Shown: positions 98 to 42,389 of the stretch, in pieces
Layout of the letters: each line of letters opens with the position of its first letter
Position numbering within the stretch: the stretch's first letter is position 1
Source: a bacterium
GTDB lineage: Bacteria > Krumholzibacteriota > Krumholzibacteriia > LZORAL124-64-63
Direction: 5' to 3'
Length of the DNA: 46,313 nt
Assembly (NCBI GenBank): GCA_031441465.1
Contig: JANOEP010000058.1
Span: 1-46,313 of the forward strand
Position numbers and translations under genes: made by a program
The notes under the pieces: generated by a model
Databases searched by the model: none
Told to the model about the DNA's origin: nothing
Seen by the model: the letters and a program-made list of their open reading frames with translations, nothing else

Positions 98-1381
98 TCA
101 TCCTTTGGCGACAGGCAGCTGGTCCCACCGCGTGGTGTACGCCGGCGACCGCCGCTCCTGCTTCATCCGCCACGCCTTGCGCAGCCCCTCGGCCGCGTAG
201 CGGACCGTGCCGCTCCCCTGGTCGCGGTTCAGGTCGTCCAGGACGTGCATCAGGCGCTGCGAATCCCGCCGCTGCGTCTCGCCGACGGCGCCGAACAGCA
301 CGGTCTGGTCGGCGTCCTCGGGCACCAGGTCCAGCAGCATGACACCGGCCTTGAGGTAGCGGTGGTCGGGCTTCCAGATGCGGTCCAGGGCGTCCATGGC
401 GGCGCGGATCAGCTCGCCGGTGTCCTGGGTGGCCCGCGGCAGCGGCACCGTGGCGGCGTTGCTGTACTGGGGGGTGCGGTGGTCGTGCTCGCTGGTCTGC
501 AGGAAGACGGTGAGGGCCTGGGCGCGGGCGCGGTCCTCGCGCAGCTTCTCCGCGGTGCGCGCGGCGAAGGTGGCGACGGCCTCGCGCATGTCCTCGTAGC
601 GCTCCACGCGCGTGCCGAACGAGCGCGAGGTCAGCACCTGACGGCGCGGCGGCGCGGCTTCTTCGAGGGCGAGGCAGGAGACGCCGCGCAGTTCGTGGAC
701 GATGCGTTCGGCCACGACGCTGCAGCGGCGCCGGACGAGGGAGGGATCGGCGTCGCGCAGGGCCGCCGCGTTGCCGATGCCGAGCTGCTCGAGCTTCTCG
801 GCCCAGCGCTTGCCGATCCCCCACACGTCCCGGACCGCGATCCGCTCCAGGTGCGAATCGATGTGCGGACCAAGCGCGGCGAGGTCCAGCACCCCGCCCG
901 TCTCGGGATTCCGCTTGGCGATGCGGTTGGCGGCCTTGGCCAGCACCTTGGTCGGCCCGATGCCCACCGACACGGGGATGCCGGTGGACCGCCGCACCGC
1001 CAGGGCGAGTTCCTGGGCGTAGGCGCCGAGGTCGCGCCGCGCGTGCCCGGAGAGATCCAGGAAGGCCTCGTCGATGGAGTAGACCTCCAGCGACGGCGTG
1101 AACTCCTGCAGGATGCGCATCACCCGGGCCGACATGTCCCCGTACAGGGCGTAGTTCGAGGAGAACACCTCGACCTTGCGGTGCTGCGCCTGCCGCCGGA
1201 AGCGGAAGAAGGGCGCCCCCATGGGGATGCCCATCGCCTTGGCCTCGTTCGAGCGCGCGATGACGCAGCCGTCGTTGTTCGACAGCACGACGATCGGCCG
1301 GTCGCGCAGACGCGGCTGGAAGACCCGCTCGCACGACGCGTAGAAGTTGTTGCAGTCGACCAGGGCGAACACGCGCGGCAC
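98..1381 (-). CDS. umuC: Y-family DNA polymerase V catalytic subunit UmuC
   Basis: N-terminal LVDCNNFYASCE, VVLSNNDGC, YSIDEAF catalytic motif and C-terminal SPAYTTRW (DUF4113-type tail); lies directly downstream of umuD. Confidence 0.95.
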   Translation of the reverse strand: MPRVFALVDCNNFYASCERVFQPRLRDRPIVVLSNNDGCVIARSNEAKAMGIPMGAPFFRFRRQAQHRKVEVFSSNYALYGDMSARVMRILQEFTPSLEVYSIDEAFLDLSGHARRDLGAYAQELALAVRRSTGIPVSVGIGPTKVLAKAANRIAKRNPETGGVLDLAALGPHIDSHLERIAVRDVWGIGKRWAEKLEQLGIGNAAALRDADPSLVRRRCSVVAERIVHELRGVSCLALEEAAPPRRQVLTSRSFGTRVERYEDMREAVATFAARTAEKLREDRARAQALTVFLQTSEHDHRTPQYSNAATVPLPRATQDTGELIRAAMDALDRIWKPDHRYLKAGVMLLDLVPEDADQTVLFGAVGETQRRDSQRLMHVLDDLNRDQGSGTVRYAAEGLRKAWRMKQERRSPAYTTRWDQLPVAKG

Positions 1382-1396
1382 GTCGGGCCTCCCGTC

Positions 1397-2020
1397 TCAG
1401 ACCTTGTGGATGACGCTGGTGACCACGCCCCAGATCACGAACTCGGTGTCCTGCGTGATCTCGATGGGGGGGAAGTCCGGGTTCTCGGGCATCAGGTAGA
1501 CCCGCGCCCGCTCGGTGCGCAGCCGCTTGACGGTCAGTTCCCCGTCGACCGCCGCCACGACGATCTTGCCGTCGACCGCCTTTTCGGAGCGGTCCACGAC
1601 CAGGATGTCGTCGGGCCGGATCCCCGCCCCGATCATCGACTGCCCCTCGACCCGCACGAAGAAGGTCGCGGCCGGCTTCTTCACGAGGTAGTCGTTGAGG
1701 TCCAGCCGGTTCTCGAGGTGGTCGTCGGCCGGGGACGGGAAGCCCGCCGCCACGCGGTGCGAGAACAGCGGCAGCTCCAGCCGCTCGGCCGCGAAGTCCG
1801 GCACCAGCACGTTGTCGGGCAGCTCCCGACCCTGGGTGTCGGCCGCGCCGTCGACGCGCCGCTGCAGCAGTTCCCGCAGCGGCACGATCAGGCTCGCGGG
1901 CACCCGCACCGGCACGGTGGGCTCGCCGTAGAGGCCGGTGCCGCGGGGGCGGCCGGCGCCGGGGCGGGGGCCGCCGTGAGTGGGGGTGGAACCCATTGAT
2001 TTGTTTGAAGATTTGCGCAT
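1397..2020 (-). CDS. umuD: UmuD / S24 autopeptidase with N-terminal basic GRP-type extension
   Basis: VAAGFPSPADD cleavage-site motif, GQSM (Ser) and LTVKRL (Lys) dyad; ATG at 2020 has GGAGGT just upstream; upstream of umuC. Confidence 0.92.
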   Translation of the reverse strand: MRKSSNKSMGSTPTHGGPRPGAGRPRGTGLYGEPTVPVRVPASLIVPLRELLQRRVDGAADTQGRELPDNVLVPDFAAERLELPLFSHRVAAGFPSPADDHLENRLDLNDYLVKKPAATFFVRVEGQSMIGAGIRPDDILVVDRSEKAVDGKIVVAAVDGELTVKRLRTERARVYLMPENPDFPPIEITQDTEFVIWGVVTSVIHKV

Positions 2021-2055
2021 GGCGACCTCCTGGGCCGGGATGACTTGATATCGGT

Positions 2056-2084
2056 ACTGTAATCGAGATCGAGGGGGGATGCAA
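2056..2084 (-). promoter_or_regulatory. Putative sigma70 promoter of umuDC (TTGCAT-17-TACAGT)
   Basis: Minus strand reads TTGCAT (2084-2079), 17-nt spacer, TACAGT (2061-2056), about 35 nt upstream of the umuD start. Confidence 0.5.
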
Positions 2085-2174
2085 GGGAAAAATGTAGGGG
2101 CGTGCGGGGCGGGTGGCTGCGGTACAATCGGGCGTGGTCGGGACCCGCGGGGGAAGCGGACGGGAGGCGCAACA

Positions 2175-2621
2175 GTGAGCGATGTCATGGCTGCGGTCGT
2201 CGCCAAATTCGACGAGAAATTCGCCCAGTGGCGCATTCGCCTGCCCCGCCGCGACGTCACCCAACGCCGCCAGGGTCGAATTCTCAAGGCCGGCTGGGCG
2301 ATCTGGTACCTGTTCGGCGCCGACGAGCGGGGCGAGTACCTCGATTACTACTCCGCGCACCGCATGTGCGGCGACGACCACACGCGCCTCTACGCCGACG
2401 GCAGCAGCGAGGATCTCGAGATCATCATCCAGTTCCGCCGCTGTTCCCTCGACCCCGCCGAGGACGCCCGCCTGGAGGCCGCTTACTTCGCCGAGAACCA
2501 GCGCATCGCCGCGATGCTGGAGGCCAAGGGTTTCGGTCTGGCCGGCGACGAGCCGGGAGGCGTCCAGATGAACCGCTACCTGCACGTCAACCCGAATGAC
2601 GACCCGCACGGCGACGCCTGA
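2175..2621 (+). CDS. Hypothetical protein (WAIWYLFG...YLDYY..HRM motif)
   Basis: GTG at 2175 preceded by GGAGG; coding-like codon bias; globular aromatic-rich sequence. Confidence 0.7.
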   Translation: MSDVMAAVVAKFDEKFAQWRIRLPRRDVTQRRQGRILKAGWAIWYLFGADERGEYLDYYSAHRMCGDDHTRLYADGSSEDLEIIIQFRRCSLDPAEDARLEAAYFAENQRIAAMLEAKGFGLAGDEPGGVQMNRYLHVNPNDDPHGDA

Positions 2622-3723: not shown

Positions 3724-3982
3724 CCGCGCATCGTCTCGCCGCCGCCGCGACGGAGGTCATCGACTTCGACACCTACCCGGACGGCTCGCCGGTCCCCTTG
3801 GCGCCCGTGGCCGCCGTCGCGCAGCCCGTCGCCGGTGACCGGACCCTGACGGATCAATTGACCTTGCTGCGGCAAGCCCCGTCGGGCATCTCCCGCCTCC
3901 GAGAAAACGCCGGGCGGCCCTCCGCCCGGCGCTGTTCTGTCGTCCGCCTGCACGCATCGCGCGCCGCGTCGGCCGGTCATCG

Positions 3983-4552
3983 TTACCGGTATCCTGCCTT
4001 GATCGAACCCCACGACGCCTCTTCCTCGGGGACGACCGGCACGCACTCCGCCGTGACGTTGTCGACCCAGAAACCCCAGTTGGTCAGGCTGGCGCCGGAA
4101 AGGTAGGAACCAGTCACCTCGATCGTGTGCAACCCGCAGGGCGCCGTGAAGCTCAGAGGGATGAAACCGTTCTCGTTTGCGGTGTGGACGTTCGAGTAGA
4201 CCTCGTTGCCGTCGATCTTCACCGCGAACAGGGCGGTCGCTTCGCCGTTCCGCAGGAAATAGTAATCCAGGGCGATCATGCAGTAGCCGTTCTCGAAGCT
4301 GCTGCCGCAGCCGAAGCTCTGCGACACGGACCCGGTCCCCGCTGGCCAGGCGAACATGGGGGGATTGGCGCTGATGCGGGCCGAGTTCGCCGGCGAGCCG
4401 AAGCCGTCCGCGACGACGGTGCCGTAACCGGTCGTGGTGGTGGCCCAGCCCGTCAGGCCGCCGGTGAAGGAACCGTTGGTGACCTGGGCCGTGGCGGCCG
4501 AGGCCAGCAGCCCTAGGACGAGAATGGTCAGGATCAAGTGGCGCATGTTCAT
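3983..4552 (-). CDS. Secreted beta-rich protein with C-terminal SWGSIKAGYR tail
   Basis: Signal peptide (ILTILVLGLLASAATA), VTNGSF carbohydrate-binding-like start, terminal V.P.EE.SWGSIK..YR motif. Confidence 0.75.
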   Translation of the reverse strand: MNMRHLILTILVLGLLASAATAQVTNGSFTGGLTGWATTTTGYGTVVADGFGSPANSARISANPPMFAWPAGTGSVSQSFGCGSSFENGYCMIALDYYFLRNGEATALFAVKIDGNEVYSNVHTANENGFIPLSFTAPCGLHTIEVTGSYLSGASLTNWGFWVDNVTAECVPVVPEEEASWGSIKAGYR

Positions 4553-4733
4553 TCCCTTTCGGATCTGTGCGGCGTGAGCCGCCTGGATGGCATCGGATAA
4601 GTTCGTTCACTAACCCTAGCACGGTTTTGAACGGCCGTGACTAAAATAAACCAATATCATCCTATTTTACCGTCGGCGATCGCGCAACCGGAGTCCCGCG
4701 CTCCCGAATCCCTTGTCCCATCGTCTTTTACAT

Positions 4734-4762
4734 TTCGAAATTCCGCATCCGTACCCTATCAT
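4734..4762 (+). promoter_or_regulatory. Putative promoter of the dsrC-like operon (TTCGAA-17-TATCAT)
   Basis: Hexamers at 4734-4739 and 4757-4762 in an AT-rich intergenic stretch; palindrome ATTTCGAAAT (4732-4741) overlaps the -35. Confidence 0.35.
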
Positions 4763-4831
4763 GGAGGCGATGGCGACCGGACCGCCCGGCCGGGTCGCAG
4801 AGCACGCAACGGGTCCCCGAAAGGGGCAGAC

Positions 4832-5152
4832 ATGCCGACGATCGATTTCGCGGGACGCACGCTGGAAGTCAACGAAGAGGGCTTCCTGGTCCATCCCGAA
4901 GACTGGAACGACGACCTGGCCGTGCACCTGGCCAGGGCCGAAGAAGGTCTCGACACCCTGACCGACGAACACTGGTCGGTGATCAGGTTCATCCGCGGCC
5001 ACTACGAAGAGAAGCAGGGCGCGCCCATGGTGCGCGCGGTCTGCAAGGCCACCGGCCTGCCGCTCAAGCGTGTCTACGAACTGTTCCCCTCGGGGCCCGC
5101 CAAGGGCGCCTGCAAGCTCGCCGGGCTGCCCAAGCCGGACGGCTGCGTGTAG
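4832..5152 (+). CDS. dsrC: DsrC/TusE family sulfur-relay protein with both C-terminal cysteines
   Basis: EEGFL..PEDW, LTDEHWSVI.FIR, ELFPSGPAKGACKLAGLPKPDGCV; C-X10-C-V terminus is diagnostic of DsrC rather than one-Cys TusE. Confidence 0.9.
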   Translation: MPTIDFAGRTLEVNEEGFLVHPEDWNDDLAVHLARAEEGLDTLTDEHWSVIRFIRGHYEEKQGAPMVRAVCKATGLPLKRVYELFPSGPAKGACKLAGLPKPDGCV

Positions 5153-5156
5153 CGCG

Positions 5157-5780
5157 ATGGACGCGCTGCGGATCGGCGTGGTGGTCTGCGGCCTCGGCGC
5201 CGGCGGCGCGCTCGCCCTGCAGGCCGCCCGCGCCCGCGCCTACGGGCGGCGCCCCCTCTACGCGCCGGCGGCGGGCAGCGCCGCGCGCGGCGTGCTCTAC
5301 GCCTTCGGCCCCGGCATGTCGCCGACGGCGAAGGAGAGCACCCGCACCCACCCCTGGGCCTACGCCCTGGGCGTGGCGTACCACCTCGGCGTCTTCGCCG
5401 CCTTCGGCTGCCTCCTGCTGCTGCTGTTCGACGCCGCGCCCGATCCCGCCGGGATCCCGGCGCGCGCGTTCGGCGTGCTGCTGTTCGCCGGCGTGCTCGG
5501 CGGCCTGGGCCTGCTCGTCCGCCGCTACACCACCGCGCACCTGCGCGGCCTCAGCGTCCCCGACGACGCCGTGGCGAACCTGCTGACCACCGGTTTCGTC
5601 GCGCTGGCCGCCGCGCGCCTGCGGTCCCCGGCGGCGGAACCGGCGCTGCTGGCGACGGCGATGCTCCTGCTGTGCTACGTTCCCCTGGGGAAGATCCGGC
5701 ACTGCGTCTTCTTCCTTGTCTCGCGCCGGCACCTCGGCCGGCACTTCGGCCGGCGGGGCACGTTCCCGCTGCGTCACTGA
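5157..5780 (+). CDS. NarI/DsrM/TmcC-like membrane anchor subunit (probable cytochrome b)
   Basis: About 5 TM helices, YHLG in a TM helix and PLGKIRH C-terminal motif typical of nitrate reductase gamma-like subunits; lies between dsrC and the Fe-S CCG gene. Confidence 0.7.
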   Translation: MDALRIGVVVCGLGAGGALALQAARARAYGRRPLYAPAAGSAARGVLYAFGPGMSPTAKESTRTHPWAYALGVAYHLGVFAAFGCLLLLLFDAAPDPAGIPARAFGVLLFAGVLGGLGLLVRRYTTAHLRGLSVPDDAVANLLTTGFVALAAARLRSPAAEPALLATAMLLLCYVPLGKIRHCVFFLVSRRHLGRHFGRRGTFPLRH

Positions 5781-5800
5781 ACCCGGAGGCGCGCGCACCG

Positions 5801-7168
5801 ATGTCCGAGATCGACGCTCTGGAAGCCAGGCTCGCGGCGCTCACCGACGAGGACCTCTCGCGCGGGCTCGACCTGTTCCGCGCGAAGCTGGGCGGGGCCG
5901 AAGCTGCCTACCTGCAGACCTGCGTCCGCTGCGGCCTCTGCGCCGACGCGTGCCACTACCACCGCACCGACCACGAACTCGCGTCGATCCCCGCGCACAA
6001 GCTCGCGCAGGTCGCCGCCGTCTTCCGCGCGCACTTCACGGCCGCCGGCCGCCTGGCCCCCGGCCTGACCGGCGCCCGCCGCTTCGACCGTGACATGGCC
6101 CGCGCCTGGGTCGAGGCGGTGTTCGGCCGCTGCTCGCTGTGCGGCCGCTGCAGCCTGAACTGCACCACCGGCATCCACATCTCGGCCGTCCTGAAGGCGG
6201 CCCGCGGCGCGTTGACCGAGATGGGCCTGATCCCGCCCGACCTGCTGCAGGTGGTCACGACCAGCCTCGAGACCGGCAACAACATGGGGATCTCGCGCGA
6301 CGACTGGCTCGAGACCGTGCAGTGGATCGAGGAGGAGATGCAGCAGGACGTCGGCGATCCCGCCGCCCGCATCCCCGTCGACAAGCAGGGCGCGCGCGTG
6401 CTGTTCACGGTCAACCCCCGCGAGCCGAAGTTCTTCCCCCTGTGCCTGCAGGCCAGCGCCACGGTCTTCCACGCGGCCGGGGAGGACTGGACCGTCGCGA
6501 GCGAGGGCTGGGACCTGACCAACTACGGCCTGTTCAGCGCGAGCCCGGCCCACGGCGGCGCCATCGCCGCCAACCTCATGGCGTCCATGGACCGCCTCGG
6601 CTGCGGGACCCTGGTCATCGGCGAGTGCGGCCACGGCTTCGCCGCCGCCCGCTGGGAGGCGGCCGAGTGGCTGCAGAAGCGCCCGGGCTTCCGGATCGTG
6701 AGCTTCCTGGAATTGATGGAGGAGTACTTCCAGCAGGGCCGCCTGCACGTCGACCCGGCGAAGATCACCGAGCGGGCCACCCTGCACGACCCCTGCAACA
6801 CGGTGCGCCACGGCGGGATCATCGAGCCCCAGCGGGCGATCCTGCGCCGCTGCCTCGCCGACTTCGTCGAGATGACGCCCAACCGGGCCGAGAACTTCTG
6901 CTGCGGTGGCGGGGGCGGGCAGCTCTCGATGAGCCGCTACCGGCAGAAGCGGCTGCAGTCGGGCGGGGTCAAGGCGGAGCAGATCCGCCGCACCGGCGCC
7001 CGCCTCGTGGTGGCCCCCTGCCACAACTGCATCGACCAGCTCATGGAACTCAACCGCGAGTACAAGCTCGGCGTCGTCATCAAGACCGTGGCGGAGGTCG
7101 TGGCCGACGCCTTGGTCCGGACGCCCGCGCAGCCCCTGGAGGAGCATCATGGCACCATCGCCCGATGA
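5801..7168 (+). CDS. DsrK/TmcB/HdrD-like Fe-S oxidoreductase with CCG domain
   Basis: Two ferredoxin motifs (CVRCGLCADAC, CSLCGRCSLNC), ECGH, HDPC, CCGGGGG and CHNC; GGAGG RBS before ATG 5801. Confidence 0.88.
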   Translation: MSEIDALEARLAALTDEDLSRGLDLFRAKLGGAEAAYLQTCVRCGLCADACHYHRTDHELASIPAHKLAQVAAVFRAHFTAAGRLAPGLTGARRFDRDMARAWVEAVFGRCSLCGRCSLNCTTGIHISAVLKAARGALTEMGLIPPDLLQVVTTSLETGNNMGISRDDWLETVQWIEEEMQQDVGDPAARIPVDKQGARVLFTVNPREPKFFPLCLQASATVFHAAGEDWTVASEGWDLTNYGLFSASPAHGGAIAANLMASMDRLGCGTLVIGECGHGFAAARWEAAEWLQKRPGFRIVSFLELMEEYFQQGRLHVDPAKITERATLHDPCNTVRHGGIIEPQRAILRRCLADFVEMTPNRAENFCCGGGGGQLSMSRYRQKRLQSGGVKAEQIRRTGARLVVAPCHNCIDQLMELNREYKLGVVIKTVAEVVADALVRTPAQPLEEHHGTIAR

Positions 7169-8372
7169 ACGCGCCCAGCTGCAATCCGTCGACACCGTGG
7201 GCGCGTCCGGCCTGATCTACCTGGACAACGGCGCCACCTCGTTCCCGAAGCCGGAAGAAGTGTACCGCTACATGGACGCCTTCTACCGGCGTTACGGGGT
7301 CAACCCCGGCCGGTCGGGCTACGACCTGTGCATCGAGTCGGGCGAACTCGTCGAGGACACGCGCCGCCTGCTGGCCGGTTTCTTCGGCGGGAAGCACCCC
7401 GACCGGCTCGTCTTCGGCTACAACGCCACCGACGCGCTGAACCTGGCGATCTACGGGCTGCTCGCCCCGGGCGACCACGCGATCACGACGCACCTGGAGC
7501 ACAACTCCAGCCTGCGCCCCCTCTGGGACCTGCAGCAGCGGGGCGTCGCGGTGGACTGGGTCGACTTCGACGAGCGCGGCTACATCGACCCCGACGCCGT
7601 GATCGCCTTGCTGCGCGCGAACACCCGCGCCGTGGTGATCAACCACGGCTCGAACGTGATCGGCACGGTGCAGCCGGTGCGCGAGATCGGCGCCGCCTGC
7701 CGCGCGCGGGGCATCCCCATGGTCCTGGACGTCTCGCAGACGGCCGGCATGATCCCCCTGGACATCGAGGAACTCGGGGCCGGCGTGCTCTGCTTCACCG
7801 GCCACAAGTCGCTGCTGGGGCCGATGGGCATCGGCGGCATGTACGTCCACGAGGATGTCGACCTGCGCCAGACGCGCGCCGGCGGCACCGGAGTGCGCAG
7901 CGCCCAGCGCCACCACCTCGAGGAGTACCCCTACCGGATGGAGTACGGCACGCCCAACCTGCCGGGCATCGCGGGCCTGAACGCCGGCGTCAAGTGGGTC
8001 CTGGAGCGCGGCGTCGACGAAATCCACCGCCACGAGATGGTCCTCTGGCGCCGGCTGCGCGACGGCCTGCGCCGGATCGACGGCGTGGTCCTGCACTGCC
8101 AGGACACGGAACAGGAGCGCATCAGCGTGCTGTCGTTCAACGTCGACGGGATGGACGCTGCCGACGTCGGCACGATGCTCGACGTCGACCACGACATCGC
8201 CTGCCGCACCGGCCTGCACTGCGCGCCGATGGTCCACGAGCACCTGGGCACGGACAAGATCCACGGCTCGGTCCGCTTCGGGATCGGACCGCTGAACACG
8301 CAGGAGCAGATCGACACGACGATCGCCGCCGTCGGCGAGATTGCGTCGCTGCGCCGGCCGAGGCGCGACTGA
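7149..8372 (+). CDS. PLP-dependent class V aminotransferase, cysteine desulfurase family
   Basis: IYLDNGATSFPKP, EHNS, TGHK (PLP Lys), RTGLHCAP catalytic Cys; overlaps the upstream gene by 20 nt. Confidence 0.9.
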   Translation: MAPSPDERAQLQSVDTVGASGLIYLDNGATSFPKPEEVYRYMDAFYRRYGVNPGRSGYDLCIESGELVEDTRRLLAGFFGGKHPDRLVFGYNATDALNLAIYGLLAPGDHAITTHLEHNSSLRPLWDLQQRGVAVDWVDFDERGYIDPDAVIALLRANTRAVVINHGSNVIGTVQPVREIGAACRARGIPMVLDVSQTAGMIPLDIEELGAGVLCFTGHKSLLGPMGIGGMYVHEDVDLRQTRAGGTGVRSAQRHHLEEYPYRMEYGTPNLPGIAGLNAGVKWVLERGVDEIHRHEMVLWRRLRDGLRRIDGVVLHCQDTEQERISVLSFNVDGMDAADVGTMLDVDHDIACRTGLHCAPMVHEHLGTDKIHGSVRFGIGPLNTQEQIDTTIAAVGEIASLRRPRRD

Positions 8373-8396
8373 CCGCTGCCGCAGGGGTGAGACCTG

Positions 8397-10076
8397 GTGG
8401 AGATGAAGCCGCAGGTTCCCGGTGTCCGCGTCCTGCTCGCGGCGCTCGTCCTGACGACGACGGTCGCCTTCCTGCGGGTGCTCGGCAACGACTTCGTGAA
8501 CTTCGACGATGTCTTCTACATCACCCGCAACCCGTTGATCACGGCGCTCTCGCCCGCCGACGCGGCGGAGATCTTCGGCCGCTTCTACTTCGGCAACTAC
8601 CAGCCGCTCGCCTTGCTGTCGCTCGCGCTGGATCACCGTCTGGCCGGCCCCGACCCCCGCGTTTTCCACGCCGTCAACCTGCTCCTGCACGTGCTCAACA
8701 CACTGCTGGTGTTCCAACTCGTCCGGCGCCTGTTCGCGCCGGAGCGCGGGCTGTGGCTGCCGGTCGCCACCGCCGCCCTGTTCGGCCTGCACCCCCTGCA
8801 TGTGGAATCGGTGGCCTGGGCCGCGCAGCGCAAGGACGTCCTGTACGCGCTGTTCTACCTGGGTTCGTTGGTCGCCTACGTCGCCCACGCCCGGCGCCCG
8901 CTCGGCGGGGGACGCCGCCTCCTGGCCGTGTCGGTGCTGCTGTTCGCGCTGTCGCTGCTCGCCAAGGCGATGGCTGTGTCCCTGGTCGGTGCGATCGTGG
9001 CCGTGGACCTCTACCTGCAGCGTCTGCCAAGGTTGCGCGGGCCGCGCCGCGACGCCCCGGCCCGGCCGACGCCGGCCGCCTACCTGCTGGAGAAGCTGCC
9101 CTTCCTGGTCCTGGCGCTCGCGGCCGGCGTGACGGCGGTGGTCGCCCAGCGGTCGGCCGCGTTCCTCGCGCCCGCCGACCTGCACACGCCGCTGCAGCGG
9201 GCGGCGATCGCCGGCTACGGGTTCGCGCATTACGCGGCGAAGCTGGTCCTGCCCCTGCACCTTTCCGCGTACCATCCGTACCCGGAGATGGGTGGCGGCG
9301 TGCCTCTCGGCTTCCTGCCGCACATCGTCTTGGTGGTGGCCGCCGTCGCGGGAACGATTTTCGCCCTGCGGCGGCACCGGGCCGCGGCCTTCGGGATCCT
9401 GTTCTACCTGGTCAACATCCTGCCCGTGCTGCAGTGGCTGCCGGTCGGCGACTTCATCGTGGCCGAGCGGTTCAGCTACCTGGCGTCGATCGGCGTGTTC
9501 CTGCTGATGGCGCTCGGACTGCAGGGTCTCGCCGAGCGCCGGCGCCGGCTGCGGGCGCCGTTGTTGGCGGCCTTCATCGCGTACCTGGTCCTGCTGGGCG
9601 CCCTGACCGACCGGCGCTGCGGCGTCTGGCGCGACAGCGTCACGCTCTGGAACGACGTCCTGGCCAAGTACCCCGACACGCCGCTGGCGCTGAACAACCG
9701 CGGTCTCGCCTGGGCCGAGCGCGGCGACCTCCCGGCCGCGCTCGCGGACCTCGACCGGGCCCTGCAGCTGGACCCGAGTTACGCGGACGCCTTGAGCAAC
9801 CGGGGCGTCGTCAAGGGACAGCAAGGCGACGACGACGGGGCGATCGCGGACTACGACGCGGCCCTGCGGCTCTCGCCGGCGTTCGCCGCGGCGCGCACGG
9901 GCCGCGCGGGCGCGCTGTTCCGGCGGGGCGTGGCGCGGTTCCAAGCGGCGGAGTATGCTGGGGCGGTGGCGGATTTCGAGAGGCTCGCGGCCGTCGACCC
10001 GACCTACCCCGGCCTGCAGCAGAACTTGCGCGCGTCGCGGCAACGATTGGCGGCAGGGCGCGTAGTCAAAGACTGA
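8397..10076 (+). CDS. GT-C fold membrane glycosyltransferase (TMTC-like) with C-terminal TPR repeats
   Basis: FDD loop motif, YQPL, HPLHVESVAW..RKD, AERFSYL, multiple TMs, TPRs (NNRG, SNRG). Confidence 0.82.
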   Translation: MEMKPQVPGVRVLLAALVLTTTVAFLRVLGNDFVNFDDVFYITRNPLITALSPADAAEIFGRFYFGNYQPLALLSLALDHRLAGPDPRVFHAVNLLLHVLNTLLVFQLVRRLFAPERGLWLPVATAALFGLHPLHVESVAWAAQRKDVLYALFYLGSLVAYVAHARRPLGGGRRLLAVSVLLFALSLLAKAMAVSLVGAIVAVDLYLQRLPRLRGPRRDAPARPTPAAYLLEKLPFLVLALAAGVTAVVAQRSAAFLAPADLHTPLQRAAIAGYGFAHYAAKLVLPLHLSAYHPYPEMGGGVPLGFLPHIVLVVAAVAGTIFALRRHRAAAFGILFYLVNILPVLQWLPVGDFIVAERFSYLASIGVFLLMALGLQGLAERRRRLRAPLLAAFIAYLVLLGALTDRRCGVWRDSVTLWNDVLAKYPDTPLALNNRGLAWAERGDLPAALADLDRALQLDPSYADALSNRGVVKGQQGDDDGAIADYDAALRLSPAFAAARTGRAGALFRRGVARFQAAEYAGAVADFERLAAVDPTYPGLQQNLRASRQRLAAGRVVKD

Positions 10077-10093
10077 ACGACGGGAGCAAGACG

Positions 10094-10354
10094 ATGGACG
10101 AGAAGAAGATCCACACCGAGGAATTCGAGATCAACGGCGACCGGCTCGTGGCCGAGGTCAAGAAACTGGTGCACGCCGGCAACATCCGGCGCATCACGAT
10201 CAAGAACGAAGAGGGCAAGTCGCTGATCGAGATCCCGCTGACCGTCGGCGTGGTCGTCGGGCTATTGGCGCCGGTGCTCGCGGCCGTCGGGGCCGTCGCC
10301 GCGCTGACGACCAAGTGCGTCATCGTGGTGGAGCGGGTCGAAGACACGGCCTGA
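10094..10354 (+). CDS. DUF4342 domain small protein
   Basis: VKKLVH.GNIRRI.IK...[10 protein letters not shown] followed by a hydrophobic helix. Confidence 0.8.
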
Positions 10355-17968: not shown

Positions 17969-18079
17969 TCCGTTGCGAAGTCCAACAGAGGGACCGCCCG
18001 CAGGAATTCGAGGTCATTCCGCTGACTTTCGCAGGACGGGGGACGACCATGGTGCTGGCCGGGGCGGGGGGGGGGACCC

Positions 18080-18901
18080 TCATCGCTCCAGTCCCTTCCA
18101 CGGTTCCCCGGGCAGCCTCGAGATCAGGATTCGTTGGACCAGTTCGAGAGCCCGGGGTGGGTCGTACGTGATCCCTGAGGCGAGAAGCGGCGGGACGTCG
18201 CGCAAGAACGCGTCGTCTGCCATCTTCTCGGCGAGGTTCGCTTCGAACTGGGTCCGGGTGACCCGTAGTCCGTCGTGCTCCATGTAGCGCAGGAAGCAAT
18301 CGACGACGGCCTGGGTGTCGAGACGCGAAAGGCTGGATATGGCTGCGGAGAGGTCGAAGAGGTCCCGTCCCCTCTTCCGCTGGTAGAGCGCTCGCACCTT
18401 GGTGCCGAGGAGTTCCTCGAGGCCGTAGGTGAGGAGATCGGCCTCGCCGTCGAACCAAGGACTATCGACCGAGAATCGCTCACGGCGCAGCCCGAGGACG
18501 GAAAAATGCTCCCGGGTGTTGATCTCCACCTTGAGCTTCAGCGGAGTGACCGGCTTCGCTTCCGAGTCGAAGCGGTACACGAAGGTCGCGCGCCCTTGGC
18601 TCTGCTTCCAGCGCGGCTCCCCAAGCCATGGGTCCAGGCGCGTTCGCATGGCCTGCAGCACCGGTCCGATGGGACCGGGGTTGACCTGCACCATGTCGAT
18701 GTCCTCGGAATAACGGGCCGGCGGGTCGAAGTGGAGCTTGTGCAGCGCCGTGCCGCCGCGAAAGGCGAGTTCCCGAACCAAGAGGTCGTCGCGGTAGAGT
18801 TCGACGAGCGCCCGGCTGATGACGAGATCCTGCTCGACCTGCGCGTCGGTGGCCCAGGGGGCGGCGCTGCGCCACGCGGTGATGTGGGCGCGCGGGATCA
18901 T
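18080..18901 (-). CDS. abiEii: AbiEii/AbiGii-family nucleotidyltransferase toxin (type IV TA)
   Basis: QVEQDL, FRGGTALHK, RYSEDID, K.RALYQR.RGRDLFDL motifs; ATGA overlap with the upstream antitoxin. Confidence 0.9.
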   Translation of the reverse strand: MIPRAHITAWRSAAPWATDAQVEQDLVISRALVELYRDDLLVRELAFRGGTALHKLHFDPPARYSEDIDMVQVNPGPIGPVLQAMRTRLDPWLGEPRWKQSQGRATFVYRFDSEAKPVTPLKLKVEINTREHFSVLGLRRERFSVDSPWFDGEADLLTYGLEELLGTKVRALYQRKRGRDLFDLSAAISSLSRLDTQAVVDCFLRYMEHDGLRVTRTQFEANLAEKMADDAFLRDVPPLLASGITYDPPRALELVQRILISRLPGEPWKGLER

Positions 18902-19710
18902 GGCTCGACCTCGATCTTCTCGTTGATCAGCAGGCGCCAGCGGCTGTCCTTCGACGCCGCGTCGGACGGCCGGTCAGGCCGCAGGGCCACGTAGCGATGC
19001 CCGCGATCAGCGATCCATTCGGCCAACTCTGAGCTCACTTCTCCGGCTCCCACCAGATCCAGCAGAAAGCCCAGGCGTTGGACGTTCGGCAGGCTGCCGT
19101 CGAGTTTGGCCGCCTCCACGGTCTTCACGGGATCCATTTTTTCGGCGAGCTCGGCCAGCACCGAGACCACGTGACCGATATGGCCCGCGGCTACCCGGTA
19201 GCGCAGCAGGTCCAGAGCGGTCGCCTCCGGGGTCGAGACGCGCATCAGGCCGGTCTCGGTCTTCACGTCCAGGACCGGAGTGGACTCCATGCCACGCTTC
19301 TTGAAGAACCGGATCCGCCCGCGGCCGGCCTCCACCGATCTGAGCTGTCCGTCGGTGATGACCTGGAACTCCTGTGGCTGTTGGTGGGCGGCCCCATGCA
19401 GCGATGCGGCGCTCAGCAGCCCGACGTAGTAGGGGCGGTCGGAGAAGGCCATCAGGTCGCGGATGTACCAGTCCGGGGGTGGGGCCCCAGCGTGCCGGTA
19501 TTCGATGGGTACGATGACGTAGAAACCGCGGCGGGGAACGGCCAAGCGGTTCTTGGCGACCAGTCGTTGGACCGCTTTGGTCAGGGCCGTATCGGTGATT
19601 CCGAGCGACGCGATCGCCTCGTCGCGGGTCAAGGTGTAGCGGCCGCCAGCCTGGAGCTCGTCGACCAGCTTGGCCAGGCTTTCGGGATCTTGATGCTGTT
19701 TCGTATGCAA
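18898..19710 (-). CDS. abiEi: AbiEi-family antitoxin / transcriptional regulator (type IV TA)
   Basis: N-terminal wHTH-like region with RGFYVIVP.EY, YYVGLLSAA..HGAAHQQPQ, VSTPEATALDL; TTG start at 19710 with GGAGGT RBS. Confidence 0.88.
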   Translation of the reverse strand: MHTKQHQDPESLAKLVDELQAGGRYTLTRDEAIASLGITDTALTKAVQRLVAKNRLAVPRRGFYVIVPIEYRHAGAPPPDWYIRDLMAFSDRPYYVGLLSAASLHGAAHQQPQEFQVITDGQLRSVEAGRGRIRFFKKRGMESTPVLDVKTETGLMRVSTPEATALDLLRYRVAAGHIGHVVSVLAELAEKMDPVKTVEAAKLDGSLPNVQRLGFLLDLVGAGEVSSELAEWIADRGHRYVALRPDRPSDAASKDSRWRLLINEKIEVEP

Positions 19711-19756
19711 GACTGGACCTCCTGCAGCCAGTTCTGCGTACGGGCTGCTCCCGATG

Positions 19757-19784
19757 AGGATAGCTGGGGTGACGAGAATTGCAA
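19757..19784 (-). promoter_or_regulatory. Putative abiE promoter (TTGCAA-16-TATCCT)
   Basis: Hexamers on the minus strand at 19784-19779 and 19762-19757; imperfect inverted repeat immediately upstream. Confidence 0.4.
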
Positions 19785-20064
19785 GAAGATATGCACAAGT
19801 GGACGATAAATGTCTCCATGTGCTTATAAAGTGCGGATGGCGAGGCATCGGTACTCAGGCTGGGAGTTCGCCAAAGGGGGCCTGCTCCACCTCCGCCAGG
19901 ATCTGCGAGCTATCCGGCGATGCGAAGATTGGAAGGTCATTCATGCCGAACTATTGGACCTCGCAAGGCCCTATGCCATTATGCTGAAGGATATGGGCGG
20001 GGGTTGACGTGACTATTTGTAGCCACCTGACTGCCTCCCAGGATTGAACAAAGGTCAGGATCTC

Positions 20065-22014
20065 ATGCCGAAAAGACCCCTTTATCTCTCCAAGGGCCGT
20101 TTCAAGCTCGGAAGCGAATGTCCCCGCAAGCTCTACTACGAACATCACAAGAGGGAGTACGCCAACCAGAAGAAGGAGGACCCCTTCTTGATGGCGTTGG
20201 CCGAAGGGGGCCATCAAGTGGGGACGCTGGCCCAGCACTACTACACCGGGGGCGTAGAGGTCGAGTCCCTGGGCTACGACGAGTCCGTGGAGCAGACCAA
20301 CGAGTTACTTGAGAGGGCAAACGTCACTATCTACGAGGCCGCGATCCGGCACGAGAACTACTTCATCCGGGTCGACGTGCTGGTCAAGGAGGGCGATCAC
20401 GTCCGACTGATCGAGGTGAAAGCCAAGTCGTATGGGGGCGAGGACGCATGGTTGACCAAGAAGGGATTTGCAACGTCCGAAGCCTGGCCCTATCTCGACG
20501 ACATCGCGTTCCAGACCTGGGTGGTCGAACAGGCCCGGCCACATTGGCAAGTTGATCCGTTCCTAATGATGGTCGACAAACGTGCCGTGACGACCGTAAA
20601 CGGCCTGCACCAGCTGTTTCGCATCAAGCGCACAGACGACGGCCGTGTGGACGTAGTGATCACCGAACCGGTGGACGCCGACCGCCTGGGGCGGGAGATT
20701 CTCGCCGCCATTCCCGTGCGGCAATACGTAGACCGGATCGTTGCTGGAACCATGCGTGACCCGGACAAAACTCCCGATTGGCAGCTTGCGACGCTCTCTG
20801 ACCGTGCCCAGATGTTCGAGCGCCTGTATCGCACCGGTGAACGCATGGCGCCTCCGGTGGGTACGATTTGCAAGAAGTGCGAGTACCGTAATGATGCCGA
20901 ATCCGAGGCCGCAGACCTGAAGAGCGGTTTCGACGAGTGCTGGCGGGAACACTGGGGTGAGGAATATGGGACTGGCGTGCCCCTTGTCACCGACTTGTGG
21001 AATTTCAGGGGTGCAGAGAAATTTCTGAACAATGGCATCTGGCGGATGGCCGACGTACCCGCGGGGGACTTGAAGCCAGTACAAGCCATTCAGCACCGAG
21101 TCACCTTGAGCCCTGCCGAATCCGAGTGGGTTTCTCCCCTCTTGAGGGATGAACTGGATAGTTGGCGCTACCCCCTGCACTTCCTGGATTTCGAGACCAT
21201 CGCCCCAGCCATACCCCTCCACAGGCAAATGCATCCTTATGAGAGCCTGGGCTTCCAATTCAGTTGCCACCATGTGGACCGGGACGGAACCACCACCCAC
21301 GACCAATTCATCGCGGAGGACCAGGGGAGGTATCCCTGCTATGCGTTCTTGACCGCCCTAAAAGCGATTCTGGACAAGGACGATGGGACTATTCTGCGCT
21401 ATTCGCCCCACGAGAACACCATATTGCGGCATCTGCGACGCAACCTCGTCTCGGGTCGGCCACCGTTGCCCGATGGGTTCGACACGGCAGCGATGATTGC
21501 CTTCATCGACGAAATCAGTCAGGCCACCAGTAGCGAGCCGGCCCATAGGGGCGCCCGCAGCATGGTGGACATATACCCCCTGGTCCAAACTCACTACTAT
21601 CACCGGCGCATGGGGAGCAAGAAGTCTATCAAGGCCGTGCTGGACGCCATGATGTCGACCTGCGAAACCCTCAAGGAACGCTACAGCCGACCGCTGGAGT
21701 TTGGAACCAATCTGAAAGGGATGGTGATGCACCAGGTGGACCCGGCCACCAGTGAAACCCGTGACCCTTACGAATTGCTGCCGCCGGTGTTCGCAGGCCT
21801 GAATCTGGATGATCTCCAATGCATGGAGTTCTTCACCGAACACGAAGACCTGCGGGATGGCGGAGCAGCCATGATGGCCTATGCCAGGATGCAGTTTACG
21901 GAGATGGGCGAATTGGAACGGAAGCAGGCCGTTGATGCTCTGTTGCGGTACTGCGAGTTGGACACCCTGGCGATGGTGATGGTATGGCAAGGGTGGAGCT
22001 CGAATGCCGAATGA
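20065..22014 (+). CDS. DUF2779-type protein: PD-(D/E)xK (RecB/Cas4-like) nuclease fused to an RNase H-like/DEDD exonuclease domain
   Basis: LSK..F..G.ECPRKLY, RVDVL...IEVK, D.AFQ, CKKC, then FLDFET ... SIK.V ... YCELDT; lower GC than flanking core genes. Confidence 0.8.
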   Translation: MPKRPLYLSKGRFKLGSECPRKLYYEHHKREYANQKKEDPFLMALAEGGHQVGTLAQHYYTGGVEVESLGYDESVEQTNELLERANVTIYEAAIRHENYFIRVDVLVKEGDHVRLIEVKAKSYGGEDAWLTKKGFATSEAWPYLDDIAFQTWVVEQARPHWQVDPFLMMVDKRAVTTVNGLHQLFRIKRTDDGRVDVVITEPVDADRLGREILAAIPVRQYVDRIVAGTMRDPDKTPDWQLATLSDRAQMFERLYRTGERMAPPVGTICKKCEYRNDAESEAADLKSGFDECWREHWGEEYGTGVPLVTDLWNFRGAEKFLNNGIWRMADVPAGDLKPVQAIQHRVTLSPAESEWVSPLLRDELDSWRYPLHFLDFETIAPAIPLHRQMHPYESLGFQFSCHHVDRDGTTTHDQFIAEDQGRYPCYAFLTALKAILDKDDGTILRYSPHENTILRHLRRNLVSGRPPLPDGFDTAAMIAFIDEISQATSSEPAHRGARSMVDIYPLVQTHYYHRRMGSKKSIKAVLDAMMSTCETLKERYSRPLEFGTNLKGMVMHQVDPATSETRDPYELLPPVFAGLNLDDLQCMEFFTEHEDLRDGGAAMMAYARMQFTEMGELERKQAVDALLRYCELDTLAMVMVWQGWSSNAE

Positions 22015-23594
22015 TCGTTCCCCTGGCTATGAGACGAGGCTCTTGTTGCGTATCGAAGGGCCGGATACGCCGGGCTTTCTGTTCCGCGAGTAGTAGACCT
22101 GGAACAGGTGGTAACTTGTTCGAGGGCCCTCCCACGCGTCGAGTGCCGAGGTTGCCGGCACCCGCGGCTGATAGCGCCAGAAGTTCCTACAGCATCACCG
22201 GCTCCAGCGCCGACAAGTTCCTGCGCTTCTGCAAGCAGGAGGCCGCCCGGGACGAGTCCGCCACGCTTTCGAAGGCGGTCATCCGCGGGCTGGTCTCCCT
22301 GGCCGACCAGGGCTGGTGGCCGGGGGGCATGGCGCCCTACACCTACGGCTACGACCTCGGCTACTTCGACCAGACGGGCACGCTCTTCCAGATCGTTCGC
22401 AACACCGACGAGGGCGACAAGCTGATCCCCGACCCAGAGGGCAACCCCGTGCGCACCGTGCGCCGCGGGCAGAAGGTGAAGGGCTCCGATCGGGAGCACG
22501 TACGGCTCTTGCCCACCCAGCACGCCCGAGAGCGTCGACGTGATCCGACGCATCTTCGGCTGGTACACGGGCGGCGCCGGCCTCGGCTTCAAATCCATCG
22601 CCGACCGCCTGAACCGCGAGGGCGTCGTCTACCCGAAGGCCAAGGGCTGGGCGATGTCGTCGATCCGGGTGATCATCATGAACCCCGCCTACATCGGCCA
22701 GGTGGTCTGGAACCGGCGGCGCATGGGCAAATTCCACCGCATCGCCGACCGCCGCGAGGTGGAACGGGGCGGCTGCGACAAGCGCCGCCTGAAGTGGAAC
22801 GGCCCCCAGGACTGGCTCGTCTTCGAGAACGCCCACGAGGCCTTGATCGACCGCGACACCTTCGACCGCGCCCAGCGCATCCTCGAGCAGCGCGGCAACC
22901 ACCGCAAGGCGACCGGCTTCCTGACCGGCAAGGCCAAGGTGTCGCCCTACCTGCTGTCCGGTCTGATCAGCGGCGGCGCGTGCGGCGGGTCGATGCACGG
23001 CCGCACTACCTGGAAGAACAAGTGGCGCAAGGACGGTACGCGCATCGGCACGAAGTACTACGTCTGCGCCGCCGCCATCACCAAGGGCAAGACGGTCTGC
23101 CAGCCCATCCAGTTCCTACAGCGGGTGCTCGACGACTTCGTGCTGGATTTCGTGGCGCAGAGGATCGACGCCTTCCCCGACGCGCGGGGGAAGGACGCGC
23201 TGCGCGCCCTAGTCGAACGGCAGCTCGCTCCGGCGACGCCTGACCCGGGACCGGAGAAGAATCGCCTCAGGACGCGCCTGACCGAGCTCACGACGAAAAT
23301 CGACTCGGTGATCGACCTGGCTGCCACCTCCGCCGAGCATCGCGATCATATGAAGGACCGGCTCGGGCGGCTCCTGGGCGAACGTCAGGAGATCGAAGGA
23401 CGCCTCCGCACGCTCGATCAAGCCCCAGCCCGGGGGTCGAACCCGGAGGTTCTCGTTGACGCTATCCTGGCGGGCCTCCCCGACGCCCGCCAACTCTTCG
23501 ACCACGGCACCATGGAAGAACGCAAGCGAGTTATACGCGCCTTCGTGGAGAATCTGACGGTCGATGGGGTGGGCGGAAGCGGCGAGCTGAGAAT

Positions 23595-23625
23595 AAAAAG
23601 AGTCCCCGATGCTCAGGGCATCGGG

Positions 23626-23633
<8 letters not shown>
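23595..23633 (-). terminator. Intrinsic terminator downstream of tRNA-fMet, inside the recombinase coding sequence
   Basis: 16-bp stem AAAGAGTCCCCGATGC / GCATCGGGGACTCTTT; the minus-strand RNA ends in a U run. Confidence 0.8.
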
Positions 23634-23715
<82 letters not shown>

Positions 23716-37908: not shown

Positions 37909-38190
37909 TCAGAGCACGAAGCCCTGTTTGCGGGCGATTTCGCGCTTCATCTTGGCGCGCAGGGCGCCGTAATCCATCTCCATGGCCCGGATCTCGCCCA
38001 GGTGCTGCTTGAGCAGTTCCTCGACTTCGGCCTCGATCTGGTCCTCGGTGCGCATGTCGTCGAAGATCGTGTCGGCGATGACGCGGTAGACCAGGTCGGA
38101 GTTCGTCTGGATGTGCAGGCGGGGGTCGCGCTCGATCATCTCGAGCAGTTTTTCCGCCAGGAACTCGATTTTGTTGGACGACAGACGCAC
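37909..38190 (-). CDS. DUF507 family protein
   Basis: GTG start; RLS..KI..LA...EDQIEAEV...MKREIARKQGFVL; tandem paralog of the neighbouring gene. Confidence 0.8.
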   Translation of the reverse strand: MRLSSNKIEFLAEKLLEMIERDPRLHIQTNSDLVYRVIADTIFDDMRTEDQIEAEVEELLKQHLGEIRAMEMDYGALRAKMKREIARKQGFVL

Positions 38191-38386
38191 TTCGGCTCCC
38201 CGGTTCGGGCACGCTGAATCTCGCCCGCCCATGGAAACCTGTTTACCTCCCCTTGGCAAGGGGATTTCGATGCACTACCCTGAACTGCCGCGAGCCGACC
38301 GGGCGAACCGGGAACCGCCGGGCGGCCCGTGCGGTAGAACGACGCCGTCGCCGAAACCGCTGTCGCCATTTCGAGGAGGATTGAGC

Positions 38387-42320: not shown

Positions 42321-42389
42321 GCTGCGGAAGACGCGGATGCGGAAGACGCGAGGCGATGAAATCATGACCCGCCGGAGAGGAGAGGCCCC

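Follow-up and report, generated by a model that had tools for sequence, protein, structure and literature searches.

A conserved gene module of DsrC, a DsrK-like membrane complex and a cysteine desulfurase points to a possible route from cysteine sulfur to sulfide

Contig JANOEP010000058.1 of the genome assembly GCA_031441465.1, from a bacterium of the Krumholzibacteriota, was analysed over its whole length of 46,313 nt (the window, which is contig C58 of host genome G000). It carries four genes encoding a DsrC, a membrane subunit, an iron-sulfur protein with a CCG domain and a cysteine desulfurase dependent on pyridoxal phosphate (PLP) (Table 1). On comparative sequence evidence this four-gene set is a conserved, laterally spread module. 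The functional linkage of its members is well supported, and the set points to a so far undescribed route from cysteine sulfur to sulfide. In the reading that we favour, the desulfurase would transfer sulfur from cysteine to DsrC, giving a DsrC persulfide that the membrane-bound complex would reduce to H2S; we put this reading forward tentatively, its probability being a little short of even. An original prediction, made from the DNA letters alone, had described four tightly linked genes on the + strand, and this layout was confirmed exactly, with gaps of 4 nt (5153-5156) and 20 nt (5781-5800) followed by an overlap of 20 nt (7149-7168). As it had also stated, no dsrAB, dsrJOP, dsrEFH or mnmA-like families lie nearby, none being found among the other open reading frames (ORFs) of the window scanned with Pfam.

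The first gene product matched the family models PF04358 (122 bits against a cut-off of 24.9, E 1.5e-35) and TIGR03342 (104 bits against 53.5) and stayed below the cut-off of the TusE equivalog NF008562 (74.2 bits against 191). It ends in GACKLAGLPKPDGCV, i.e. Cys-X10-Cys-Val, with the cysteines C94 and C105, which from family knowledge we take to be CysB and CysA, respectively. Both C-terminal cysteines, already noted in the original prediction, are kept in 78/78 DsrC orthologues, as is the surrounding arm GACxxAGLPKPDGCV, where x stands for two variable residues. The DsrC motif of DiSCo is given in the accessible part of PMC8477390 as AGLPKPTG-CysA with one mismatch tolerated, and the AGLPKPDGC of the operon protein fits it with a single difference, T to D. 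The nearest solved chains are those of DsrC bound to DsrAB of sulfate reducers (2xsj_C, E 3e-32; 2v4j_C, E 8e-30), whereas a TusE-like chain is matched at E 1e-6 only. Judged by these comparisons, the operon protein is a genuine two-cysteine DsrC. The host genome encodes a second DsrC (G000:C47:9880-10170; L002:1384-1794), which also has both C-terminal cysteines (…GACRYAGLPKSDGCV), is 52% identical to the operon DsrC and stands solitary between large ORFs with no visible sulfur link. A single, weak match (23 bits) to the DsrE family, that of TusBCD, was found in this genome, on contig C36.

The desulfurase scored 405.8 bits with TIGR01977, above the cut-off of 377, and remained below the SufS model TIGR01979 (237.7 bits against 475.1) and the SclA model NF040779 (292.9 bits against 525). 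Its nearest solved relatives are SufS-type enzymes (5b7s, 1t3i and SufS chains). K220 and C358, presumably the PLP lysine and the catalytic cysteine by reference to SufS-type motifs, are invariant in 59/59 sequences, and 118 other positions are conserved at 97% or more. Five further class-V aminotransferase paralogues are encoded in the host genome, one of them directly behind sufB-sufD on contig C35, so that housekeeping Fe-S assembly has a desulfurase of its own.

To follow the gene set in other genomes, we used a profile built from four orthologues of the CCG protein, which matched over 600 stretches of species-representative genomes; 600 were examined and 562 were confirmed as relatives. 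The synteny counts refer to the best 80 loci of this search. Their labels are all those of metagenome-assembled or uncultured genomes and name Eisenbacteria/Krumholzibacteriia, Holophagaceae, Thermoanaerobaculaceae, Aminicenantes, Zixibacteria, Ignavibacteria and Bacteroidales, a few of these labels looking wrong. A membrane gene is present at 79 of the 80 loci, dsrC at 71 (six of the nine loci without it are cut by a contig end) and the desulfurase gene at 59, where it lies downstream on the same strand in 38 cases, downstream and convergent in 20 and upstream in one. At seven of the 21 loci without a desulfurase, the sequence stops within 200 nt downstream of the CCG gene, so that the enzyme is adjacent at 59 of 73 informative loci, spread over at least six phyla. 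Twelve of the 14 remaining genomes have a desulfurase orthologue elsewhere (62-68% identity), in several cases 7-10 kb away on the same contig. Among 61 relatives of the host, the module was found in ten, belonging to four genera; in one relative (G019), whose CCG protein is 51% identical, the desulfurase gene has moved upstream and all four genes are still together. The set is split in genome G078, where dsrC is convergent with the desulfurase gene at one locus (L115) and the membrane and CCG genes stand at another without dsrC (L067); the position of dsrC beside the desulfurase gene in this genome speaks for a direct tie between the two. Since the same set recurs in at least six phyla, the linkage of the four genes is far beyond chance.

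The desulfurase was then placed in a quick IQ-TREE phylogeny of 97 rows (59 adjacent genes, 12 distant ones from module genomes, 20 other TIGR01977 genes of the host's bacterial family and 6 paralogues). One clade of 73 rows (SH-aLRT 99) included every adjacent and every distant gene, and 18 of the 20 other TIGR01977 genes were found outside it. By this pattern the window desulfurase is closer to the enzymes of Holophagaceae, to which it is 66-71% identical, than to unlinked TIGR01977 proteins of its own family (41-58%). The main subgroups of the desulfurase tree are found again in the CCG tree, a pattern consistent with transfer of the whole module as one unit. The original prediction would have fallen if the desulfurase were not conserved next to the other three genes; instead, the enzyme is adjacent at most informative loci and co-diversifies with the module.

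These results bear on a biosynthetic relay, in which desulfurase and DsrC would supply thiolation or cofactor enzymes in the manner of IscS/Tus or SufS/SufE, and the membrane/CCG complex would merely reset a DsrC disulfide or give the two electrons for S0 to S2-. Such a relay, which we consider unlikely, draws on the homology of DsrC to TusE within TIGR03342, on the typical role of desulfurases as trafficking enzymes and on the frequency of TIGR01977 genes in relatives without the module; the host and 39 of 40 module genomes also lack a dsrA-model match, so that reduced sulfur would need careful management. The neighbourhoods speak otherwise, since no thiolation, MnmA-like, ThiI-like or Moa-type gene recurs among 120 flanking ORFs of 22 loci. 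Moreover, CysB is invariant (78/78) whereas transfer of the TusE type needs the last cysteine only, the operon DsrC is nearest to the DsrAB-bound proteins of sulfate reducers rather than to TusE, and Fe-S assembly is served by the separate SUF locus.

Pairing of the two proteins was also modelled, as the original prediction had proposed, by predicting the complex of a desulfurase dimer with DsrC from custom alignments in three runs, with three controls. The complex score was 0.55 (0.56, 0.55 and 0.03 in the single runs), against 0.00 for the best control. The runs share at least 58% of contacts with a partner pLDDT of at least 83, and no interface was reported. Of 157 solved complexes, 116 reach the mark for a complex, as do 2 of 215 mismatched pairs, and scores of 0.60 or less are found, among those passing, for just 18 of the 157 solved complexes and for both passing mismatches. 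The prediction lends weak support to a desulfurase-DsrC pair, which one of the three runs did not reproduce.

The CCG protein contains a Fer4_8 domain and a single Pfam CCG domain, and its scores remain below the cut-offs of HmcF (295.7 bits against 750), TmcB (282.8 against 735) and the DsrK equivalog NF045796 (223.8 against 400). Two ferredoxin-type motifs (C41/44/47/51 and C111/114/117/121) and one complete CCG motif (C332/C367/C368/C407/C410) are conserved in 99-100% of 84 orthologues. The sequence C276-G-H278 is present in 84/84 and aligns with the same C-G-H of 7/7 true DsrK proteins, this pair being common to all groups in the alignment. A preprint on the structure of DsrMKJOP (bioRxiv 10.64898/2026.08.25.746951), in its accessible part, lists the non-ligating Cys329, His331 and Asp500 as strictly conserved in DsrK; there Asp500 stands in for the 'supernumerary' cysteine ligand of HdrB, a cysteine at this position represents the Hdr-like state, and the carboxylate is argued to suit a harder, oxygenated substrate, namely perthiosulfenate formed from a trisulfide. 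These residues of the A. fulgidus protein (C329/H331/Asp500) were mapped through the DsrK of relatives and not by direct alignment; on this mapping, the column of window C410, the second cysteine of CxxC, holds Asp in 7/7 true DsrK and Cys in 33/33 module proteins. Cysteine is also found there in 6/6 proteins of a sister group, 2/2 TmcB-like proteins and 11/11 DsrK-like paralogues. The original prediction had named a trisulfide as substrate; with Cys instead of Asp at this cluster-ligand position, a persulfide or disulfide is the likelier one, and the all-cysteine cluster site suggests that such a substrate would suit it.

The CCG proteins were compared in a quick tree of 60 rows, for which 33 of the 84 complete module sequences were hand-picked to span the groups and the sister-group proteins were trimmed to 460 residues. 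All 33 module proteins formed one clade (SH-aLRT 98), sister (SH-aLRT 92) to a cluster of dsrA-positive relatives; the 7 true DsrK (691-744 bits) and the 2 TmcB-like proteins (725 bits) branched separately. The description 'DsrMK/Tmc-like' thus holds for the general likeness and not for the position of the CCG clade. No true HmcF over the cut-off was found among the 61 relatives (best 375 bits) and the tree is without HmcF, while a sequence search of the PDB found no solved DsrK or DsrM but only EtfD (9ojn, E 9e-6). The sister cluster (L014-L019, in relatives G020, G032, G011, G018, G059 and G009) consists of an HmcE-like membrane gene with two histidines, a CCG gene and a PAS histidine kinase gene, its CCG proteins being longer (579-610 aa) with a C-terminal extension. 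All six complete sister clusters are in genomes with dsrA, and dsrC and the desulfurase gene are not beside them.

The membrane subunit had no Pfam match and was recognised at low scores by the NCBIfam models HmcE (E 1e-7; 31.7 bits against 275) and TmcC (E 7e-5; 22.4 against 240). Its AlphaFold2 model (pLDDT 95.2) retrieved eight NarI entries as top Foldseek matches (probability 1.0, TM 0.51-0.54). In VIA the eight NarI entries reached Z 12.5-12.9, with root-mean-square deviations of 4.3-5.0 over 156-168 residues; mycobacterial EtfD came next with its membrane domain (Z 10.8), and no unrelated row exceeded 7.8. As modelled, the subunit has a NarI-like five-helix fold. Its only invariant histidines are H76 (81/81) and H182 (99% of 81 sequences), H65 being kept at 79%. 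The haem ligands were examined by aligning module proteins with three DsrM and two TmcC-like proteins that adjoin true DsrK or TmcB-like genes in relatives. All 20 aligned membrane subunits have H76 and H182, whereas a histidine 18 residues before that of the SKxxH motif is present in 5/5 DsrM/TmcC, 0/12 module and 0/3 sister proteins. The second helix-2 histidine of DsrM is missing from the module subunit as well, so that two of the four haem histidines of DsrM/TmcC are kept. In NarI, H56 and H205 ligate the proximal haem and H66 and H187 the distal one. For the module subunit, a single haem b held by H76 and H182 is predicted; comparison with the NarI ligands suggests that the cytoplasm-side haem is retained and the distal haem lost, and the quinol site thought to be used by NarI and DsrM-1 would go with the latter. 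DsrM itself binds two haems through conserved histidines, according to the accessible text of PMC10504309. As the distal ligands are missing, the complex itself probably builds no NarI-type redox loop, and the quinol-driven 'respiration' of the original prediction becomes doubtful with a single bis-His pair left.

The host genome (3.49 Mb in 74 contigs, ~70% G+C, 96.8% estimated completeness) gave no match to dsrA, the NIR_SIR domain or aprA, whereas among 14 control genomes the dsrA model matched in 8 and the NIR_SIR model in 11. This speaks against the locus being the dispersed dsrC/MK part of a genome with dsrAB, one of the refutations that the original prediction had named. dsrA was over its cut-off in 0 of 40 module genomes tested (40 of the 80 loci), with one weak match. 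Of the 61 relatives, 11 have dsrA and 10 the module, with zero overlap; as these genomes are kin, this is a pattern and not a statistic. No match at all was obtained in 39 of the 40 module genomes with the dsrA model, which also catches assimilatory sulfite reductases in the control genomes. The host and other module bacteria may lack the capacity for sulfate or sulfite assimilation.

As to redox partners, the host genome has two futalosine-pathway genes, no MenA and two NuoH genes, together with two genes for haem-copper oxidase subunit I, a cytochrome bd-like gene and a molybdopterin oxidoreductase. The quinone-synthesis, NuoH and oxidase genes mark the host as quinone-respiring and probably facultatively aerobic. 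A menaquinone marker was over its cut-off in 31 of the 40 module genomes (a futalosine gene in 20, MenA in 13). The two haem-copper oxidases, the bd-like oxidase and the menaquinone synthesis genes would also serve an oxidative direction, in which electrons of DsrC-bound sulfur or of the DsrC dithiol pass through the CCG protein and haem to the quinone pool and on to oxidases, much as has been suggested for sulfur oxidisers with DsrMKJOP; according to the accessible part of PMC10504309, complexes of the DsrMK type are believed to work either way in nature. We regard this direction as very unlikely. No reverse DsrAB or other sulfite-forming enzyme was found (sHdr-type genes were not searched for), and oxidation would therefore end at a DsrC trisulfide or disulfide without an outlet; most carriers are, besides, labelled as coming from anoxic habitats.

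No additional partner recurs across phyla, as judged with Pfam from 120 flanking ORFs of 22 loci and from 32 ORFs around the distant desulfurases. Sporadic neighbours of the module include MocR/GntR-type regulators, a PALP enzyme, rhodaneses, YeeE-type transporter genes, a histidine kinase and HPPK (Table 1). Some neighbours would fit a defence against sulfane-sulfur or thiol stress, where membrane electrons clear excess persulfide or polysulfide or repair cytoplasmic disulfides, DsrC acting as a thioredoxin-like shuttle and the desulfurase in cysteine homeostasis: Fur/PerR-like, ferritin and peroxiredoxin genes at L109, a thioredoxin-like protein at L107, rhodaneses at L051 and L109 and YeeE-type sulfur transporter genes at L109. 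They are sporadic, however, turning up at few of the 22 loci, whereas conservation is limited to the four core genes, and no such genes stand beside the module in the window, which makes this defence a distinctly unlikely function.

The TIGR01977 family also includes the SclA selenocysteine lyase model, and one paper reportedly ties EF2568 and TIGR01977 to selenium traits. The PLP enzyme could then be a selenocysteine lyase, with DsrC carrying Se0 and the complex forming selenide for selenophosphate synthetase (SelD). SelD is indeed over its cut-off in 32 of 40 module genomes, the host included; yet it is found in 60 of the 61 relatives irrespective of the module, which only 10 of them have, and so does not discriminate. 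Eight of the 40 module genomes, including the chromosome-level G071, have no SelD over the cut-off, and the desulfurase stays well below the SclA model (292.9 bits, cut-off 525), so that we give selenium handling hardly any chance. The host SelD gene (G000:C25:35277-36200) has one in-frame TGA, as have those of most of the 61 relatives, and its product is probably itself a selenoprotein.

A sigma-70-like promoter match (TCGAAA and TATCAT, 16-nt spacer) lies ~70 nt 5' of dsrC inside an AT-richer intergenic region of 280 nt; it is the sole such site in 3900-10300, shuffled sequences giving a mean of 0.2, and as a consensus match only it is no evidence of function. Parts of the membrane, CCG and desulfurase genes are matched by contigs (90-97% alike) that stem from three RNA libraries of two studies; these contigs run across the boundary between the membrane and CCG genes (5749-6467) and across that between the CCG and desulfurase genes (6287-7182 and 6932-7179). 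dsrC is uncovered in the three RNA runs, a gap that carries no information. Such contigs can contain DNA and carry no depth, strand or transcript-end information; they are a weak hint at operon expression and do not imply a single transcript.

From these data we infer each chemical step of the following route, as well as the use of quinol as donor. The desulfurase would convert L-cysteine to L-alanine and, on family knowledge, hold the sulfur as a persulfide on C358. CysA (C105), in the mobile C-terminal arm of DsrC, would then take over this sulfur, a step suggested by the synteny, the co-phylogeny and the weak complex prediction. By homology, loaded DsrC would dock on the CCG protein, where the single non-cubane [4Fe-4S] site with C276 and H278 may reduce the persulfide to H2S and regenerate DsrC; alternatively, the species reduced at this site could be a C94-C105 disulfide, formed after attack by CysB. 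Electrons would arrive through the two ferredoxin-type clusters from the one-haem NarI-fold subunit, with menaquinol as their most likely source. Overall, cysteine + 2[H] would give alanine + H2S, an electron sink and a sulfide source without sulfite reductase. Reduction of cysteine to alanine and H2S with menaquinol should be feasible, given the energetics of related C-S hydrogenolysis. Energy coupling by the complex is doubtful, and an energy gain, if any, would come from upstream quinone reductases rather than from the complex itself.

Several points weigh against this route. Two dsrA-positive relatives, G011 and G059, have a module-clade desulfurase but lack the module itself, and TIGR01977 genes (41-58% identity) occur in 25 relatives without a module-clade CCG gene, so that the enzyme family is independent of the module. 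The predicted desulfurase-DsrC complex is weak, with one of three runs failed. Desulfurases are slow enzymes, which fits trafficking better than catabolic flux. With two of four haem histidines kept, an energy-conserving loop is unlikely, and a host with oxidases needs no such electron sink when oxygen is present. Nine of the 40 module genomes show sub-threshold MenA-like matches only and no futalosine gene. The RNA-library contigs, finally, are no proof of transcription. The broader claim that reductive cysteine desulfuration is a widespread, unrecognised terminal electron-accepting reaction carried out by a one-haem DsrK-like complex is possible but, in our estimate, less likely than not.

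The module works like the cycle of DsrC and DsrMK, yet is distinct from DsrMK proper. It resembles DsrC with the two-subunit DsrMK (DsrM-1 type) of archaeal and Gram-positive sulfite or sulfate reducers, and DsrMKJOP, in its two-cysteine DsrC with the DsrC-type C-terminal motif, in the small NarI-fold membrane subunit and in a CCG protein with two ferredoxin-type clusters, a single non-cubane site and a non-ligating Cys-x-His. Unlike these systems, it is found in a genome without DsrAB, with a cysteine desulfurase linked in place of a sulfite reductase. Its CCG protein is outside the DsrK clade (224 bits against 400) and has Cys where 7/7 true DsrK have Asp, and its membrane subunit has 207 aa against ~335 in DsrM of relatives and two of the four haem histidines. 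As model cut-off and clade, Asp ligand and four haem histidines are thus all lacking, the module is not DsrMK proper. HmcEF and TmcBC of Desulfovibrio-type sulfate reducers give the best curated models, likewise combine a cytochrome b in the membrane with a CCG protein and share the cysteine at the CxxC position. The module, in contrast, scores under half of the HmcF (750) and TmcB (735) cut-offs, and, set against the usual composition of Hmc and Tmc, its operon has no gene for a cytochrome c or other subunit, HmcA and TmcA not having been searched genome-wide. It also differs from TmcB/TmcC of relatives by its separate CCG clade and by the third histidine column, which TmcC keeps and which is empty in the module.

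HdrDE of methanogens is a comparable two-subunit enzyme of cytochrome b and CCG protein that reduces a disulfide with electrons of a membrane carrier, and both systems keep a cysteine at the supernumerary ligand position; the module, unlike HdrDE, has one complete CCG motif with only C276 left of the other, and its presumed substrate is the protein DsrC and not CoM-S-S-CoB. The relays SufS-SufE/SufU, CsdA-CsdE and IscS-TusA-TusBCD-TusE offer a parallel in that a SufS-like desulfurase is encoded with a small cysteine-bearing acceptor of the TusE/DsrC family. The module acceptor is, in contrast to these, a two-cysteine DsrC tied to a membrane redox complex, next to a separate SUF locus. The sister cluster of dsrAB-positive relatives has the nearest CCG clade, the shared CxxC cysteine and C-G-H and a two-His membrane subunit; it differs by the C-terminal extension of its CCG protein, the sensor kinase beside it and the absence of an adjacent dsrC or desulfurase gene. 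A full-text literature search, which did not cover subscription journals, found no published description of the module. In their accessible parts, PMC10504309 analyses solely genomes with DsrABCMK, and PMC8477390 and PMC4846661 do not mention a desulfurase.

The Pfam families of the operon neighbours are not linked to sulfur and comprise UmuDC-like, cation-efflux, META-domain, TPR membrane and MGS-domain proteins. Further away, a region of lower G+C (18000-23700, 58-64% against ~70%) holds the AbiEii-type and serine-recombinase-type genes and is probably a mobile element.

Table 1. Features of the window and of module loci in other genomes. Positions are those of the window unless a locus (L) is given.
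Feature	Position	Strand	Remarks
UmuC-like (IMS family) and UmuD/LexA-like (Peptidase_S24) gene pair	98-2287	-	window start
Sigma-70-like promoter match, TCGAAA / 16-nt spacer / TATCAT	4735-4762	+	consensus match only
dsrC	4832-5152	+	106 aa, two-cysteine sulfur carrier
NarI-fold membrane subunit gene (as modelled)	5157-5780	+	207 aa
CCG iron-sulfur subunit gene (DsrK/HmcF-like)	5801-7168	+	455 aa, cytoplasmic
TIGR01977 PLP cysteine desulfurase gene (class-V)	7149-8372	+	407 aa
AbiEii toxin-type nucleotidyltransferase	18080-18901	-	in lower-G+C island
Serine-recombinase-type gene	22540-23682	+	in lower-G+C island
MoxR AAA ATPase, DUF58, VWA, BatA-like and BatD-like string (Bat/aerotolerance-type operon)	38111-46313		cut by window end
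PALP-family enzyme near desulfurase	L049:6582-7721; L073:6928-8010		directly downstream (L049); ~400 nt beyond, divergent (L073)
MocR/GntR-aminotransferase regulators	L056:1608-2969; L066:1354-2841		upstream
Rhodanese, YeeE-type sulfur transporter halves, NrfD gene	L051:634-1050; L109:6477-8376		

The presence of DsrC and DsrMK-type complexes is taken to indicate dissimilatory sulfite reduction or the oxidation of sulfur. In the module, DsrC and a relative of the DsrMK reductase go together with a cysteine desulfurase, and the bacteria concerned have no sulfite reductase. The carriers, among which the module has spread laterally, belong to Eisenbacteria, Acidobacteriota, Aminicenantes, Zixibacteria, Ignavibacteria and Bacteroidales. 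If the proposed route is true, a DsrC cycle would yield sulfide in hundreds of species that lack DsrAB, from six phyla or more, and this would be a new organic-sulfur source of sulfide in sediments, aquifers, digesters and guts and an electron sink for amino-acid degraders. Orphan dsrC and dsrMK-like genes in metagenomes would then need cautious annotation, as they would not imply sulfite reduction. The module would also show an all-cysteine DsrK-type site handling a persulfide instead of the oxygenated intermediate proposed for DsrK, and its Cys-for-Asp ligand and lost distal haem ligands make it a natural variant for testing the mechanism of DsrK.

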